Shown: piece after piece, positions 9,438 through 64,000 of the stretch
How positions within the stretch are numbered: position 1 is the stretch's first letter
How the letters are laid out: each line of letters begins with the position of its first letter
NCBI GenBank assembly: GCA_002269645.1
Contig: NIVC01003750.1
Span: forward strand, 1-64,000
Source: Macrostomum lignano
Taxonomy: Eukaryota
Length of the DNA: 64,000 nucleotides
Reading direction: 5' to 3'
The notes under the pieces: generated by a model
Told to the model about the DNA's origin: nothing
Seen by the model: only the letters and a program-made list of their open reading frames with translations
Database searches by the model: none
Position numbers and translations under genes: made by a program

Positions 9438-34700
<25,263 letters not shown>

Positions 34701-39255: not shown

Positions 39256-39466
39256 GGACTTGGACGCATATAAAGCATATTTGCTCCATTTGCAGTCCAG
39301 AGGTTCATAATGTGATATATCAGTTACCATGCGTAGATAATAAAAACACTAGATGGGTCACTCGCCTATTTCATGAATAAGCTACTTTCAATTGGGCGTC
39401 TGTATAGAGTTTTTTGGATATATATTTGTGCACCAAGTAAAATTTTAATTTTATATTTAGATTATG

Positions 39467-40266
39467 ACTATAGCATTTTGCAGTCAAGTTTGAACTGCGG
39501 GCATTCAAATTAGACAAGAAGGGAAGAGCCAAATTTCAGAATCCGTCCCCAAGTCAAGCAGAACTTTATGTCTGTGGTACAAACTGAAACACACTGACGG
39601 GCACTCAATTTAGACAACGGGCATTCAAATTAGACAAGCAGCGGAAAGTCTGTGTGCCAGAGAGAAAGACCATGGACAATCCGATTCGTCGCTATGCAAG
39701 AATTTCCAGAGAGAAGCGTGACCTCATTATTGGGGCATGCCAACGTGGTGACTCTGTGGCTGAAATTGCCAACATGTTGGATGTCAAGAGATCATCAGTG
39801 TACAACATCTGGAACAAGTTTGTTCAGGATGGCCAGCGATACGCGCTACCAAGGGGAGGAGCCAGGCACCGTCGAATGAATCCTGCAATGAAGGACCATC
39901 TGGCCGCCTTGTTGAATGCCAACCCTCTGATGACACTCGGGCAAATGCGGGAATCGCTTCTTGTTCATTGATGTGCTGAGCACCCTGTTTTGTTTGTTCA
40001 CACATGCTTACTTTGTTATAACTTGTTCTTATCTTCATAGTTCAGGGTTCACAGAATGGTTGTCTGACAACAGACGCAACACGATCTTGAATTGCCCAGC
40101 CAATGCGCCTGAGAACTTGTCTAATTTGAATGCCCCTTGTCTAAATTGAGTGCCCACCAGTGTGATTTTGTCTAGGCCATAGATAGCATTTGTGCCAGCA
40201 GTGAGATCTGGTCAAGCGTCTAATTTGAATGCCCGCAGTTCAAACTTGACTGCAAAATGCTATAGT
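39467..40266 (+). mobile_element. 800-bp internally deleted Tc1/IS630-type DNA transposon
   Basis: ~50-bp outer TIRs (ACTATAGCATTTTGCAGTCAAGTTTGAACTGCGGGCATTCAAATTAGAC) and inner IRs 39594-39640/40117-40162; TA dinucleotides at the ends; retains the transposase N-terminus only. Confidence 0.85.
39672..39971 (+). pseudogene. Truncated transposase: paired-like HTH DNA-binding region, no DDE domain
   Basis: ISREKRDLIIGACQRGDSVAEIANMLDVKRSSVYNIWNKF...PRGGARHRR..NPLMTL, typical of Tc1/IS630-family N-termini. Confidence 0.75.
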
Positions 40267-41047
40267 AGCAATCAGCGCCCCCCGTTGGGGAGCCAAAAAA
40301 TGCAGTACAAGTTTATGAATATATTTGTCTTCAACTTGAATCTCCAATGTGAGAATCGATTGGTCTATGCGTCGTATTCTTTTATTTTTAGACCTTCTGA
40401 GCTTCTGAGCCATATGACTAGCCAATCCTAGCTTATCCTTTATAGTCTATGGCTCATAGACTAGGCTGGACGCAGCTAGGCCCTTCGTATTCAGCGTAGG
40501 CAGGATTCTCACTTTGGATGGCTTTTTATCACTTTGCTTATCCTTTATAGTCTATGGCCCATAGACTAAGGCTGCACGCAGCCAGGCCCTTCGCAGTCAG
40601 CGTAGGCAGGATTCTCACTTTGGATGGCTTTATTCTCAGTTAGGCTGACAAAACCAATACCCATGCTTTAAGGGCGTTAATGGGAAAATCAGAGGGCGCC
40701 GTTAGGCGCCCGAGGATTTCTCATTGTTTAGCAATTTGACGATCATTATTCGCATATTTTATGCAGAACAATAATTACTACAAACAATGCATTGTCTGTA
40801 GGATCGTCAAACAGAAAACTCGCCAGACAATCGTTGTCACTCACTGGGACCGCTGATTATTTATCCATTGTACCATGACCTTTGTGCCCGCTGGGCACTT
40901 ATTCTTGCCTTTTAATGCCATAGACTACATTTAAGCCCGCTTACACGAGTCAAACTTACTTACTTACTTACTACTGACGGGGGGCGCAGGCGCCGCGAAT
41001 AGGCCGCGAGGCCCCTATCGCAACCCCAAGGTAAAAGAGCACAAGGA

Positions 41048-46132
<5,085 letters not shown>

Positions 46133-47399
46133 TTAGCCAGCAGCCAACTACTTAGCAGCCACCTGCCCCGCAAAAAAGCAGCAGGGGGGATCCGTCCCCC
46201 ACCAGCAGACCAAGACGAGGAAGCTAGCCGCTTCCACGCCAGGCCAGAACGAAAAGGAGGGGGAAGAGCCTCCTCGAAAAACGAAAAGCTGGCGGATGTC
46301 ACAGAGTCCCTCGGTTTAAGTTGCCGTTTGCCCCCCACGAGTCAAACTTACTTTAAGTATCAGATTAAACATGCCTTTTGAGGGAGTTATTTGTATAAAT
46401 CACGAGGGCCTGAGGCCCGAGGGATTTATGAAAATAACTCCCGAAAAAGGCATGTGTAATCTCGTATAAACCATAGACATAAATACTTTATGGGATATTA
46501 TTGAATATTACCAAATAAAATCCCGGAGAACGCAAATATTGTCACGGAAAGTCTTTATTTCTATGGATTATTGTCATTTAACGCCCGATTGTCTATTTGA
46601 AACTTACTCTAATGCAAATTAGCGGGCAGTAAATGTCATTAACTGCCCGCCAATTTTGTCCCACTTTGTCAAGGACACAAATGTCTATGGCACAATAATA
46701 GTACTACCCATGCTTTGCGGGCGTTAATAGTACATTAATACCCATGCTTTGCGGGCGTTAATGAGAAATCAGAGGGCGCCTAACGGCAGATCCGGGAAGA
46801 GTGGGTGAGTTCTACCACCCTAATTATTGTGTCATAGACATTTGTGTCCTTGACAAAGTGGGACAAAATTGGCGGGCAGTTAATGACATTTACTGCCCGC
46901 TAATTTGCATTAAAGTAAGTTTGGCATAGATAATCGGGCGTTTAATGTCATTAACTGCCCGCTAATTTACATTAACTGCCCGCTAATTTGCATTAACTGC
47001 CCGCTAATTTGCATTAGAGTAAGTTTCAAATTGACAATCGGGCGTTAAATGACATTAACTGCCCGCTAATTTGCATTAGAGTAAGTTTCAAATAGACAAT
47101 CGGGCGTTAATGTCATTACCACGCTCGCGCTATCGCGCTCGCGCGCTAATAACATTAACACTCAAAAATAGTGCAGAAGAATATATCATTAACTGCCCGC
47201 TAATTTGAATTAAAGTAAGTTTGACTCCTGCAAGCGGGCTTAAATGTAGTCTATGGCATTAAAAGGCAGGAATAAGTGCCCAGCGGGCACAAAGGTCATG
47301 GTACAATGGGAGATTATACATACGGTACTAGAGGTACAGTGTAAACAATAAGCAAAATCACGAGTGGCGTAGCGAGTTCATTGGATCTGGTTCCGTCAG

Positions 47400-48924: not shown

Positions 48925-50037
48925 ATGACGGCGCAACGAACTCTCGGTGGGATGAGCACCATTTGCCTGTGGTTCGCTCTGGCAGCGCTTCTGACCTACG
49001 TAGCATACACTGCAGTGTCTCGAGAGCGTAGCAACATTGTCAAACTGTCCGAGATCAAGGCGGACAAACTAGATCCAGTGGAGAAAAAGTGCCCAGCTTA
49101 TCAGGAGCTCCGTCGGATCGATTTTCTAAGTCCTTTTTTGCGCCACCAGCTGTGCCGAGGCACGGAGGCCTACAAACGGTCAAAGAATGGATTCCCTATT
49201 TGCGAGTTGAAAACACCGCCTCCGGAGAAGCTGCTCGGCATCGTGCGACAGAAAAGTGAGATTATCCCCATGGTTAACATTCGCGGCGCAAAAACACCCA
49301 TCAGGGGTTACAACGGCGAAGATTTGATTTCGGATGCAATCCGGAAGAACAAAGCCTGGGAGCCAGAGTTAGCCCGGATTATCTTAAAGATTGCCCAGCA
49401 GATACCACGCGTAACTTTCTTGGACATCGGTAGCAATATCGGGGTGTACACTGTTCAGGCTGCACAGCTGGGTTTACCAACGCTAGCTCTGGATGCCAAC
49501 ATCCGCAACCTGTTGAGGCTGCATCTTACCCTACAAGCTTTATCACTAAAGGCTACTCTCATTTGGAACTTCATTGGAAACAACCAGCAGCTCCAGTATC
49601 TTAAATTCCCTAAGGAATCCAACGTTGGTGCCGGCAGAAAGAGTTTGATGAACGATGGTTCAGAGGAAAACTGGCTTAATGACACGATTCCCATCATGCC
49701 GATTCGCAGCGAAAAGCTTAGCCGCCTAATCAAGACTAAGGATGTCGTAATGAAGATGGACATTGAGAAAGGGGAAGCTACTTTTTTGGAGTCGTCAGGC
49801 AGTCTGTTCAACGAGTTCAAAATTTGGGCGGTACAAATGGAGTGGCAGGGTAGCTTGTCAACGGAGCAAGACAGGATGAAGATTTTGGATTTCTTCACAA
49901 AAAGAGGTTACACTGCATGGAAAAGCCCAAATGTTCAGCGCCTTGTTTCTTCTCAGTGGAAGACCTGGGGCGACATGATCGACATTCTTTGGCTGCACAG
50001 CGACTTTCAGCTAAAGCTGCTGGCTCTGAAGAAATGA
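48925..50037 (+). CDS. Intronless FkbM-family SAM-dependent methyltransferase with N-terminal membrane anchor (370 aa)
   Basis: TM ICLWFALAALLTYVAYTAV; motif FLDIGSNIGVYT; VMKMDIEKGE (FkbM K.D.EG.E-like); uninterrupted ORF. Confidence 0.8.
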   Translation: MTAQRTLGGMSTICLWFALAALLTYVAYTAVSRERSNIVKLSEIKADKLDPVEKKCPAYQELRRIDFLSPFLRHQLCRGTEAYKRSKNGFPICELKTPPPEKLLGIVRQKSEIIPMVNIRGAKTPIRGYNGEDLISDAIRKNKAWEPELARIILKIAQQIPRVTFLDIGSNIGVYTVQAAQLGLPTLALDANIRNLLRLHLTLQALSLKATLIWNFIGNNQQLQYLKFPKESNVGAGRKSLMNDGSEENWLNDTIPIMPIRSEKLSRLIKTKDVVMKMDIEKGEATFLESSGSLFNEFKIWAVQMEWQGSLSTEQDRMKILDFFTKRGYTAWKSPNVQRLVSSQWKTWGDMIDILWLHSDFQLKLLALKK

Positions 50038-60298: not shown

Positions 60299-61394
60299 CT
60301 GCAGTAGATAAAAAATATTCGGAAATTTTTAACAGCTCAAGTATATATTATTTCGAATATTCGCATTTGACTACTGCCACCGGGCGATCAGTAGAGTAAA
60401 AAGGTAAAGTTGTGCACCTTTACTTTTTGTTGTGTTTCGAGGATTGTGCGGAGGGCGGGAGTTGCGAAAGTGGAAGAGTTCAGTAAAAGTACGCAGTGCT
60501 TAAAGCTGCTTGAGCTTATAAGCAAATCTTAAGAAACCAGGCAATTTTCAATTTTTAAGTCGGGATGAGGTTGTGTTGCTGGCCTGGCTTTCAAATTAAA
60601 AGTTTAAGATTCCTTTATCGCCAAGGCCTTACGATAGGCTGACAGTAAGGGGTGTTTTGAAAAGTTTAACACATTAGAAATGTTCAAGCAGAAATCAGAA
60701 AAGTACATCGTGTCCGTTTTAAATGGTCTGCATTTCTTAAAGGTTTGTGCCGGAAATACAGTAATAAGTGGGACAGTTCTTGCAGCAGATATTCGGTCAG
60801 TAAGTACTTATTAAATAATCAATGCAACCGGTTGGCGAGCAGTACATTTAGTGCGGAAATAGTTTTATATAACGACAATTGCAAAGTAGAGTCAACTGTC
60901 CACCGCTACCATCAGACAGTTGCTAAGGCACATTTAATAAGCAAGGAAGCATGCTGCGTGACTACACAAGTAAATGAGCACTTACTCTGCCTGATCAGCC
61001 TCTGCTGTGCGTGTGGGAGGCCCGATAACAAGCCGACACAGATTAGCGAGTTCAGTCTGTACATTTGGGGCATCTACTACTCATAGTAGCTTGGAAATCA
61101 ATGCAGTGCAAAATTTGGGAGAAAAATTGAAAAAAAAGTTATTCGGTCAATAAAAAATCATGCACAAAATTATTGGGGCTCTGGTGGAAATCCCGAACTG
61201 CTCAATCAGTGCCGGCTGTTCGAACTCGGGACCTCTGAGTTTTCAACGGGCAGAAGGGGAGGAAAAACGCGATTTTTTGTTATGAATAAAACCAAAACTG
61301 TTACTTTTACAGACTGCATAGTACTTTTACGAGTTAGTAATATTTTTACGAGCTGGTATATAAAGTCAATTTAGCTTTATATACCAGCAAAAAC

Positions 61395-62470
61395 CTCTAC
61401 ATGTAGTCTGAATGTACTATACAAGCAGCCTGTACATGTTGAATGCACTGTACAAGTAGGCTGTACATGTTGAATGCACTGTACAAGTAGAATGTACATG
61501 TTGAATGCACTGTACAAGTAGCCTGTACATGTTGAATGCACTGTACAAGTAGACTGTACATGTTGAATGCACTGTACAAGTAGCCTGTACAAGTTGAATG
61601 CACTGTACAAGTAAACTGTACATGTTGAATGCACTGTACAAGTAGACTGTACATGTTGAATGCACTGTACAAGTAGCCTGTACATGTTGAATGCACTGTA
61701 CAAGTAGCCTGTACAAGTTGAATGCACTGTACAAGTAAACTGTACATTTTGAATGCACTGTACAAGTAGCCTGTACATGTTGAATGCACTGTACAAGTAG
61801 CCTGTACATGTTGAATGCACTGTACAAGTAGCCTGTACAAGTTGAATGCACTGTACAAGTAAACTGTACATGTTGAATGCACTGTACAAGTAGACTGTAC
61901 ATGTTGAATGCACTGTACAAGTAGCCTGTACATGTTGAATGCACTGTACAAGTAGCCTGTACATGTTGAATGCACTGTACAAGTAAACTGTACATGTTGA
62001 ATGCACTGTACAAGTAAACTGTACATGTTGAATGCACTGTACAAGTAGACTGTACATGTTGAATGCACTGTACAAGTAAACTGTACATGTTGAATGCACT
62101 GTACAAGTAAACTGTACATGTTGAATGCACTGTACAAGCAGCCTGTACATGTTGGATGCACTGTACAAGTGGCCTGTACATGTTGAATGCACTGTACAAG
62201 CAGCCTGTACATGTTGGATGCACTGTACAAGTAAACTGTACATTTTGAATGCACTGTACAAGTAGCCTGTACATGTTGAATGCACTGTACAAGTAGCCTG
62301 TACAAGTTGAATGCACTGTACAAGTAAACTGTACATGTTGAATGTACTGTACAAGCAGCCTGTACATGTTGAATGCACTGTACAAGTAGACTGTACATGT
62401 TGAATGCACTGTACAAGTAGCCTGTACAAGTTGAATGCACTGTACAAGTAAACTGTACATGTTGAATGCA
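61395..62470. repeat. 31-bp minisatellite (TGTACATGTTGAATGCACTGTACAAGTAGCC)~35
   Basis: Direct observation; ends abruptly mid-unit at 62470. Confidence 0.96.
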
Positions 62471-62919
62471 AGTAGTATATAAAAAGACGCTTCTAGACCC
62501 AGAGCACTTTTTTAATGACCGTTTTAAGGGTCTAGAGGGGGGACACGGGGGGTAAATAAAAAAACACATCTAAACACCATTAATACATCTAATCACCCAT
62601 AATCACCCCTAACAATAAAAATCATTCCCAACACTTCCAAACACTCCCCAACACCCCCCTCGCGTCCCCCCTCTTAAGACCTTACAAACGGTCATTAAAA
62701 AAGTGCTCTGGGTCTAGAAGCGTCTTTTTATATACTACTACTCTATAACCCCTTGCCCGCGCCGCAGGCGCGAAGGGTAGGAAAGAATAGAAGCTATTTA
62801 TAGTCAGCTCACCTACCCACCCAACATTCCATTTAGACCAGATTTTAGACCAAACAAAACTAGACTATCGTTTTGGTTTTCGTTTTCAAAAATTTGGTCT
62901 AAAATCTGGTCCAAATGGA

Positions 62920-63360
62920 ATGCAGACAATCTTTTTTCTGTTACTAAAAATAGAACAAAAAATGACACACGTTACACATATGCAAAATCTGAATGAATTG
63001 CAGGTAGGAGACCCAGTTGAATACCGAGGTGAGGGGCTTTTTGATGTGGTTGGAACAGCAGCAAATTTTGTTAAAGACAATATGGGGCTTATAGGGCAAG
63101 CTGGCTCCGCAGCAGGTTCTATAACAAATGCTGTAAAAGGAGGAATTGAAGCAGCTAGAGCGGCAGAAGAACTAAAGAAATTGAGAGATTTTAACGACAC
63201 CCTCTCACAAATAAATGCAATAAAAGATTTAAAGCTGGCACAAGCCGCACAACCAACAGAAACCCCCACGAAAAGCGCGCCAATAAGTAATAAAGATATT
63301 CAGGATTTTAATAAAATGTTAACCACAATTAAAGGCGGAAAAGGATTAAAGAAATTTTAA
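62920..63360 (+). CDS. Polinton-type small protein (likely start 62962) with GEGL and GGKGL motifs
   Basis: 146-aa ORF; RGEGLFDVVGTAANFV amphipathic segment; ends IKGGKGLKKF. Confidence 0.65.
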   Translation: MQTIFFLLLKIEQKMTHVTHMQNLNELQVGDPVEYRGEGLFDVVGTAANFVKDNMGLIGQAGSAAGSITNAVKGGIEAARAAEELKKLRDFNDTLSQINAIKDLKLAQAAQPTETPTKSAPISNKDIQDFNKMLTTIKGGKGLKKF

Positions 63361-63370
63361 CAATATAAAA

Positions 63371-64000
63371 ATGGACACAGATAACGACCGCTTATATTTT
63401 ATAGGAGAAATTGTAGATACTTTAGATCTAGATGATAATAAACATAGCCACACAATGTTAAAAAGATTGGATCGATTAGGTAAAAAGTTTGACTACGACA
63501 TCGATACATTTAAACTCGCAGCAAAATATGCACAAGAAGGAAGGCCGATATCCTTTAAGAATCGCGGCAGAAATTATAGGTTGACAGACTCCGATGTGAA
63601 ATTTTTAATGGAGACTCACACTAAAAAGGACGGCGGATTACTACCCATTCTACCGCTTCTTTTAGGACTTGGCGCAGCTGGAGCAGTCGGTTTAGCCGGA
63701 AAAAGAATTCATGATAATGTAAAACAGCTAGGAGAGTTAAGAGCGAAACAGGGGGGAATCTTGCCCCTTGCAGCTTTGCTCCCAATAATTTTTGCAGGAA
63801 TTGGAGCAGCTGGAGGAGTTGCTGGCGGAGCAGCTGGAATTGCAAAAGCAGTAAATGACAAAAAAGCTGCGGACGAAAAAGCTAAAAGAGAGGCCGAATT
63901 TCAAAGACAGCAAATAACGCAGGACGCACAATTTAAACAAAACTTATCGATACAATTAATAGTAGTTCAGCAACAGCTGAGCAAAAAAGAAATGCAGAAG
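63371..64000 (+). CDS. Polinton-type putative membrane-active virion protein (5' part; open to the window end)
   Basis: 210 codons without a stop, not in the ORF track: MDTDNDRLY...KKDGGLLPILPLLLGLGAAGAVGLAGKRI...KQGGILPLAALLPIIFAGIGAAGGVAGGAAGIAKAVNDKKAADEKAKREAEF... Confidence 0.78.
   Translation, partial: MDTDNDRLYFIGEIVDTLDLDDNKHSHTMLKRLDRLGKKFDYDIDTFKLAAKYAQEGRPISFKNRGRNYRLTDSDVKFLMETHTKKDGGLLPILPLLLGLGAAGAVGLAGKRIHDNVKQLGELRAKQGGILPLAALLPIIFAGIGAAGGVAGGAAGIAKAVNDKKAADEKAKREAEFQRQQITQDAQFKQNLSIQLIVVQQQLSKKEMQK

Follow-up and report, generated by a model that had tools for sequence, protein, structure and literature searches.

In the standard model of Polinton replication, the single strand of the element is closed by pairing between its two far-apart TIRs (PMC4196379 and, in its accessible part, 10.64898/2026.07.28.741278). 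At position 62471 of the 64-kb stretch of DNA analysed here (the window), an element begins whose terminus is followed, a short way inward, by an inverted copy of itself. The question raised by this locus is what such a self-folding end represents. With a probability of about 50%, we take the foldback to be a built-in structured terminus, serving as a local panhandle origin and as a template for end repair, a function that we infer from one copy.

Very likely, the insertion represents the left terminus of an adintovirus-like Polinton/Maverick, of which the window covers the first 1530 bp; the assignment is based on the end motif and on a protein X-like ORF located 900 bp inward. [quoted passage not shown] The preliminary description had already recognized a Polinton-like terminus starting with AGTAGT, and this word is indeed found at 62471, at the onset of an AT-rich insertion right behind an intact 31-bp satellite. 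Among vertebrate Mavericks no end motif is commoner than (AGT)2, which occurs 713 times in the supplement of PMC8097293 and has been tied to jumping-back initiation (PMC8097293). With animal Polintons/Mavericks (adintoviruses; PMC8097293, PMC8502044) the element shares this end, AT-rich and densely packed ORFs in which introns are not visible, a protein X-like gene and a sharp host boundary. It departs from described Polintons in that their TIRs pair with the far end, whereas the inverted copy of the terminus is internal here, and in that small virion-type genes begin about 490 bp from the end. In vertebrate Mavericks, integrase and polymerase head the two modules (PMC8097293), and virion-type genes right behind the terminus may indicate a rearranged end. 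No other copy of the structure is present in the 64-kb window, so it is known from one copy, and an exact 20-mer of the terminus matched no locus in the prokaryotic genomes of GTDB.

The adenovirus-like virion accessory gene is ORF2, which matched Pfam Adeno_PX with an E-value of 0.0024 at 18.1 bits, under the curated cut-off of 25 bits. Among 8000 scored candidates, 40 homologues were retrieved at E 0.001 or better, many with PF05829 and nine named as Lottia gigantea hypothetical proteins. A profile built from 21 sequences (ORF2 and 20 of these 40) had adenovirus pX as its top PDB match (E 0.013), and the Atlas neighbours, scoring 0.91-0.92 with recognition below threshold, included Preplasmiviricota clusters, one of them with Adeno_PX in 20% of its members. 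Protein X-like domains have been reported in adintoviruses, according to the accessible part of PMC8502044. The similarity of ORF2 to one homologue (P0001) breaks frame near 63940, which is either decay or a sequencing error. Scanning the prokaryotic genomes of GTDB with the ORF2 alignment profile gave 255 pattern matches, none of which was confirmed, and phage records gave no match by blastn or tblastn; as these collections are prokaryotic, their negative results carry little weight. For ORF1, a full HMMER search returned 14 matches, of which the eight short ones were kept and the six long ones (616-2965 aa), matching in multiple stretches, were dropped as probable composition matches. A word-indexed search found none among 140 candidates, Atlas neighbours were weak (scores of 0.80), Pfam held no family for ORF1 and none common to the nine members, and no PDB match fell under E 0.36. 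By its features, ORF1 is possibly an adenovirus pVI/adintovirus cupiennin-like virion protein.

Table 1. Features of the element end and of the adjoining host DNA (positions in the 64-kb window)
Feature	Position	Strand	Basis or remark
Host 31-bp minisatellite, 34.3 copies, presumed insertion target	61409..62470	.	abrupt end at element
Predicted left copy of 6-bp TSD (six bases left of element)	62465..62470	+	from Maverick TSD length
(AGT)2 terminal motif, left element end	62471..62476	+	sequence; PMC8097293
Left arm, outer part (54 bp), perfectly complementary to 62686-62739; putative origin/att core	62471..62524	+	
Inner left arm, degenerate, rich in G-runs	62525..62552	+	alignment score matched by 1/5000 shuffles
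Loop, 99 nt, no G on + strand, degenerate 9-10-bp tandem array, without predicted structure on either strand	62554..62652	+	
Inner right arm, degenerate	62656..62685	-	
Right arm, outer part, repeating the first 54 bp in inverted orientation	62686..62739	-	
Third trinucleotide unit, unpaired, beyond the internal copy	62740..62742	-	
GC-rich hairpin, C-G-closed GCA triloop at 62764-62766	62750..62777	+	
Third foldback, 30-bp arms (62825-62854/62893-62922), 97% complementary, 38-nt spacer; AGACC/GGTCT motifs	62825..62922	.	
ORF1, 132 aa (146 aa from upstream ATG at 62920); small unnamed protein family	62962..63360	+	
ORF2, adenovirus protein X-like, two GG-hydrophobic segments; runs off window	63371..64000	+	

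On the host side, each of the 34 satellite units matches at 27-31/31 positions as far as 62470, and the far edge of the array is decayed. This pattern is expected of an interrupted array, and the satellite is the presumed insertion target. The abrupt stop of the array thus fits an insertion, as had been proposed, although the claim that it is cut mid-unit depends on an arbitrary choice of phase. The word AGTAG is also part of the satellite unit itself (62465-62475), and such microhomology may have helped to form the junction. Just left of the array, an imperfect short palindrome occupies 61355-61385. The array is very likely a satellite of a Macrostomum flatworm, and the satellite load of the window agrees with the published description of the M. 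lignano genome (PMC5730564, accessible part). The text and three supplements of that paper contain no mention of Polinton or Maverick, and the accessible part of the PMC8502044 supplement contains none of Macrostomum.

Several other elements and genes were observed in the window. At 20011-24069, gag and pol ORFs of an LTR retrotransposon extend over several frames, with zinc knuckle, protease, RT, RNase H and integrase in Ty3/gypsy order, and on the - strand at 41048-45982 a non-LTR retrotransposon is present whose RT and RNase H domains are distributed among several ORFs. A single-ORF FkbM-type methyltransferase (48925-50037) is 96% identical to a Macrostomum lignano protein. An exon at 30550-31059 (- strand) matches the ANTH domain (E 1.3e-12) and, together with a coiled-coil exon at 19067-19561, may belong to a HIP1/Sla2-like host gene whose introns are filled with satellites.

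The foldback itself consists of two arms of unequal quality. The outer arms are identical at 54/54 positions, in agreement with the approximately 55 bp noted before, and local alignment lengthens them to 62471-62552 (82 bp) against 62656-62739 (84 bp) with three gaps and two substitutions. The several mismatches ascribed earlier to the inner parts are therefore real and lie in the inner ~30 bp: 5/5 differences fall within the inner ~31 of 85 columns, inward of base 54, a clustering with a post hoc probability of ~0.006 under an even spread (0.002 when six events are counted). The inverted copy of the first ~85 bp, previously placed at ~62650-62742, is likewise genuine, with its coordinates corrected to 62656-62739, and lies about 190 bases inward from the tip. 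What had been described as a 272-bp unit does form a hairpin, of which the paired part measures 269 bp (62471-62739), since nothing pairs with the final ACT of ACTACTACT (62740-62742). The predicted DNA fold of 62471-62790 reaches -94.5 kcal/mol (z -21.7; 0/100 shuffles equally stable). The G-runs of the inner arms give G4Hunter-type scores up to 2.0 in magnitude; a G-quadruplex was set aside as the runs pair mutually in the stem. A circle junction was also rejected, since its end motifs would meet at the centre and here they lie at the outer edges. The terminal arm moreover holds a TATA-box-like word (62476-62486, 62724-62734), of which one copy faces inward and one outward.

Between the arms, the spacer estimated before at ~95 nt and nearly free of G is a folded loop of 99 nt without any G. 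It is part of a G-free run of 109 nt (62553-62661), the longest in the window, which none of 20000 shuffles of the element part equalled, and its minimum free energy is 0 on both strands. Moreover, the loop has a periodicity that had not been noted earlier (lag 10, z 4.6; lag 19, z 3.9; 0/5000 shuffles): it is a decayed tandem array with a period of 9-10 bp, and because this period has decayed the loop is not fresh. On the - strand, 62553-62661 is G/T-rich toward the element end, which is the polarity of a telomere, and contains one TTAGGG, a resemblance only.

Secondary structure does not stop at the end of the 269-bp unit and persists up to ORF1 (z -10.4). The second GC-rich hairpin lies exactly at the 62750-62777 given in the preliminary description, to which the third foldback at 62825-62922 is an addition. 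The motif AGACC/GGTCT, common to the terminal arms and the third hairpin, occurs seven times in the terminal 455 bp compared to a shuffle mean of 0.72 (0/5000 shuffles), of which mirroring leaves about four independent occurrences. Rfam returned 12 matches, all far below gathering scores and 11 of them to miRNA hairpin models, which we consider generic hairpin matches.

How these parts might work together can be outlined as follows. The 269-bp foldback would be integral to a structured terminus of ~450 bp with three packed hairpins. In a single-stranded state, be it an excised strand or a strand displaced during protein-primed replication, the terminus would pair with its internal inverted copy and not with the far end some 15-20 kb away, and the resulting local panhandle, a perfect 54-bp duplex ending in the slide-back repeat, could be used for protein-primed initiation. 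On the strand with its 3' end here, the internal copy could serve as a template to restore a trimmed end; the outer 54 bp would thereby stay identical and only the inner arm would drift. The G-free loop strand would be unable to compete with the stem. The foldback is assumed to be family-wide and to be present at both ends. We favour this reading because it explains the sharp boundary between perfect and degenerate arm, the lack of structure in the loop and the succession of hairpins that reaches ORF1. It is further supported by the missing TSD around the unit, the absence of satellite behind it, and the hairpins and AGACC/GGTCT motifs beyond it. Counting against it are the single copy, the lack of visible core genes, far TIR and TSD in the window, the virion-type genes behind the end, unlike the vertebrate layout (PMC8097293), the abundance of long foldbacks in this host, and the competition with protein priming that a self-priming paired 3' end could cause.

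Precedents for parts of this scheme are known from other systems, here compared on the accessible parts of the sources. In adenoviruses, a displaced strand likewise rebuilds a duplex origin via an inverted copy in the form of an ITR panhandle, although the partner there is the far ITR and here it is located ~190 bases away (PMC9863843). The terminal-protein telomeres of Streptomyces, where several packed palindromes bear GNA loops, may resemble this end by analogy only, without homology, in their packed palindromes, a terminus pairable with an internal segment, a GCA triloop, a protein-primed end and foldback-templated repair (PMC7205883, PMC5449611). Such GCA loops are typical of Streptomyces telomeres (PMC7205883), and foldback-templated end repair proceeds there via the Palindrome I hairpin and not via longer-range pairing (PMC5449611). 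The terminus described here has three hairpins, one of them with a GCA triloop; in the window, GCA is the loop of 2/20 triloop hairpins, and the C-G-closed form is found twice on the + strand and not on the - strand. Streptomyces differs in being bacterial, with Tap/Tpg-dependent end patching after internal initiation and 13-bp pairing (PMC7205883, PMC5449611); instead of a 13-nt Palindrome I at the end of a bacterial replicon, the terminus here is AGTAGT in an animal genome. The 5' ends of Helentron/DINE-1 elements also have a nearby inverted copy of themselves (PMC4067079), although none of their 13-bp subTIRs, inverted repeats 3-22 bp off, TT targets and rolling-circle enzymes applies here, and no TT target, 12-15-bp subTIR or inverted repeat within 22 bp was found. 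Casposon TIRs can contain internal palindromes (PMC4046053).

The perfect outer and degenerate inner arm are equally expected of the left and right TIR of a miniature element, and this leads to a second explanation: a derivative of 269 bp, formed by internal deletion and consisting of the true left TIR, 99 bp and the true right TIR, would have been captured inside a sibling element upstream of ORF1, after which the composite was moved by the left end of the derivative and the right end of the sibling, with the left copy of the old TSD being lost. The foldback would then be a functionless one-off or subfamily accident. The layout of the unit is exactly that of a TIR pair, its arms of 54-84 bp lie inside the Maverick TIR range of 46-1447 bp (PMC8097293), the internal ACTACT joined to the element interior resembles an integration junction, and the missing TSD and the virion genes beside the end are both explained. 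Accidental annealing at single-strand breaks is moreover cited as a source of Polinton palindromes in the accessible part of 10.64898/2026.07.28.741278, with reference to Kapitonov and Jurka 2006. Conversely, at least two rare steps are needed, 270-bp Polinton derivatives are not met in the accessible parts of the literature consulted, the hairpins and their common motif run on past the unit, and the 64 kb contain no free copy. We consider such a capture possible, though rather doubtful.

Since the 3' end of the predicted - strand fold lies flush on the internal copy, with template continuing inward, the terminus could also prime by itself as in parvoviruses: the folded 3' end would prime synthesis along the genome, and nicking and recopying of the closed terminus would flip the 269-bp unit. 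In the accessible part of PMC11575299, flip and flop ends are the signature of AAV, whose ITR is, like the present end, an imperfect terminal palindrome able to self-prime; its compact double hairpin, Rep nicking site and ssDNA genome are not shown here (PMC11575299), the loop having an MFE of 0 on both strands instead of forming a T-shaped double hairpin. Hairpin priming has been proposed for palindromes at the termini of virophages and PLVs from Halocafeteria seosinensis (10.64898/2026.07.28.741278, accessible part), and the uniqueness that the preliminary description implied for an inward-paired terminus was thus overstated, as this source reports terminal palindromes beside TSDs in related elements. 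Its virophages and PLV subtype 4 are integrated Polinton relatives with a palindrome at the TIR edge adjoining the TSD; here, too, the palindrome sits at the very edge of the terminus. Those palindromes, of 52 nt (subtype 5) and detected in a search that allowed gaps of up to 10 nt, are from a protist and occur mostly with non-pPolB replicases, whereas the present animal end has arms of 54-84 bp that repeat a protein-priming end motif on either side of a 99-nt loop. Retention of the slide-back repeat typical of protein priming argues against hairpin priming, as do the association of the H. seosinensis palindromes with mainly non-pPolB replicases (10.64898/2026.07.28.741278), an open 99-nt loop unlike the compact AAV double hairpin and the lack of a visible nicking enzyme in the first 1530 bp of the element covered by the window. 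We therefore judge hairpin priming unlikely. Among the three readings that had been offered before, a built-in second origin ranks above a fused mini-element and the latter above a flip-flop intermediate, in an order that one copy cannot decide; an integrated copy is at most the trace of a replication intermediate and not the intermediate itself.

The absence of a TSD also bears on whether the unit arrived independently. No TSD of 3-10 bp flanks it in any of 1485 combinations of boundary and length, with seven two-base matches only, and none of three satellite words matches in 62471-64000, so the satellite does not restart behind the unit; both results agree with the earlier statements that the unit lacks a TSD and is not an independently inserted MITE. 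The six left-flank bases do recur at 62919-62924, giving an apparent TSD around a 448-bp unit, which we rejected because the word occurs three times in 1530 bp with four of its bases in the arm of the third hairpin, and because neither a preceding end motif nor satellite behind it is present. That a host MITE or foldback unrelated to the element, such as one targeting TA and spanning 62475-62735, merely happens to border a truncated Polinton is very unlikely. The two-base TA/TA match at 62475/62735 and the long inverted repeats at 39460-40273 and 46568-47110 speak for it; TA is self-complementary, so that any inverted repeat with TA yields this match, chance mimicry of a Maverick end motif beside Maverick-type genes would be required, and the other foldbacks of the window are dissimilar, neither of those two loci having similarity to the Polinton end. 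A foldback alone is unremarkable in this host, because the window contains eight perfect inverted pairs of at least 20 bp within 2 kb, at three loci. The element at 39460-40273 (~810 bp) has 56-bp inverted ends (95%) and nested 20-bp subterminal repeats, and by eye its interior resembles what is left of a Tc1/mariner transposase. The cluster of nested inverted and tandem repeats at 46336-47244, with 132-bp arms (93%) around 123 nt, probably represents a foldback element of the host.

Palindromes that stem from foldback chimeras of reads are nearly perfect and centred on a single point. Here, by contrast, the arms enclose a unique loop of 99 nt and their differences cluster in the inner part, and the 54-bp match is error-free through homopolymer runs. 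An assembly or read chimera at the satellite/TIR junction is for these reasons highly improbable, even though the frame break in ORF2 could reflect a sequencing indel and M. lignano assemblies are difficult and repeat-rich, as the accessible part of PMC5730564 reports.

The built-in terminus may have a wider extension. Tentatively, and at clearly less than even odds, we consider an animal Polinton lineage with telomere-like ends, in which both ends of each copy carry a duplicated origin that encloses a periodic, structure-free loop. Each end would then fold alone, and either initiate and repair without the far end or self-prime and flip; the internal copy could release a 269-bp mini-replicon, and the end-replication strategy would differ from the long-range racket model. 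An internal copy of a Polinton terminus is absent from the accessible parts of PMC10748475, PMC11296320, PMC8363768, 10.1101/2022.07.12.499685 and PMC4067079, and Kapitonov and Jurka 2006 may already have described similar Polinton ends.

The terminal structure is real and unusual and is located on a probable Polinton end, shorter terminal palindromes being known in protist virophages and PLVs. As a single rearranged copy it would be a curiosity. If common to all copies, it would give a hint of the way in which these elements, so far little studied, replicate or mend their termini. The loop being present in both orientations among copies would point to hairpin priming, and a single orientation would favour protein priming or end repair; if the unit were found free with TSDs, Polintons would give rise to derivatives of MITE size. 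As the likely host, a laboratory flatworm, is amenable to transgenesis, free element DNA can be sought. The Polinton replication model is itself inferred from sequence, and an end with its pairing partner close by offers a cheap test of it.
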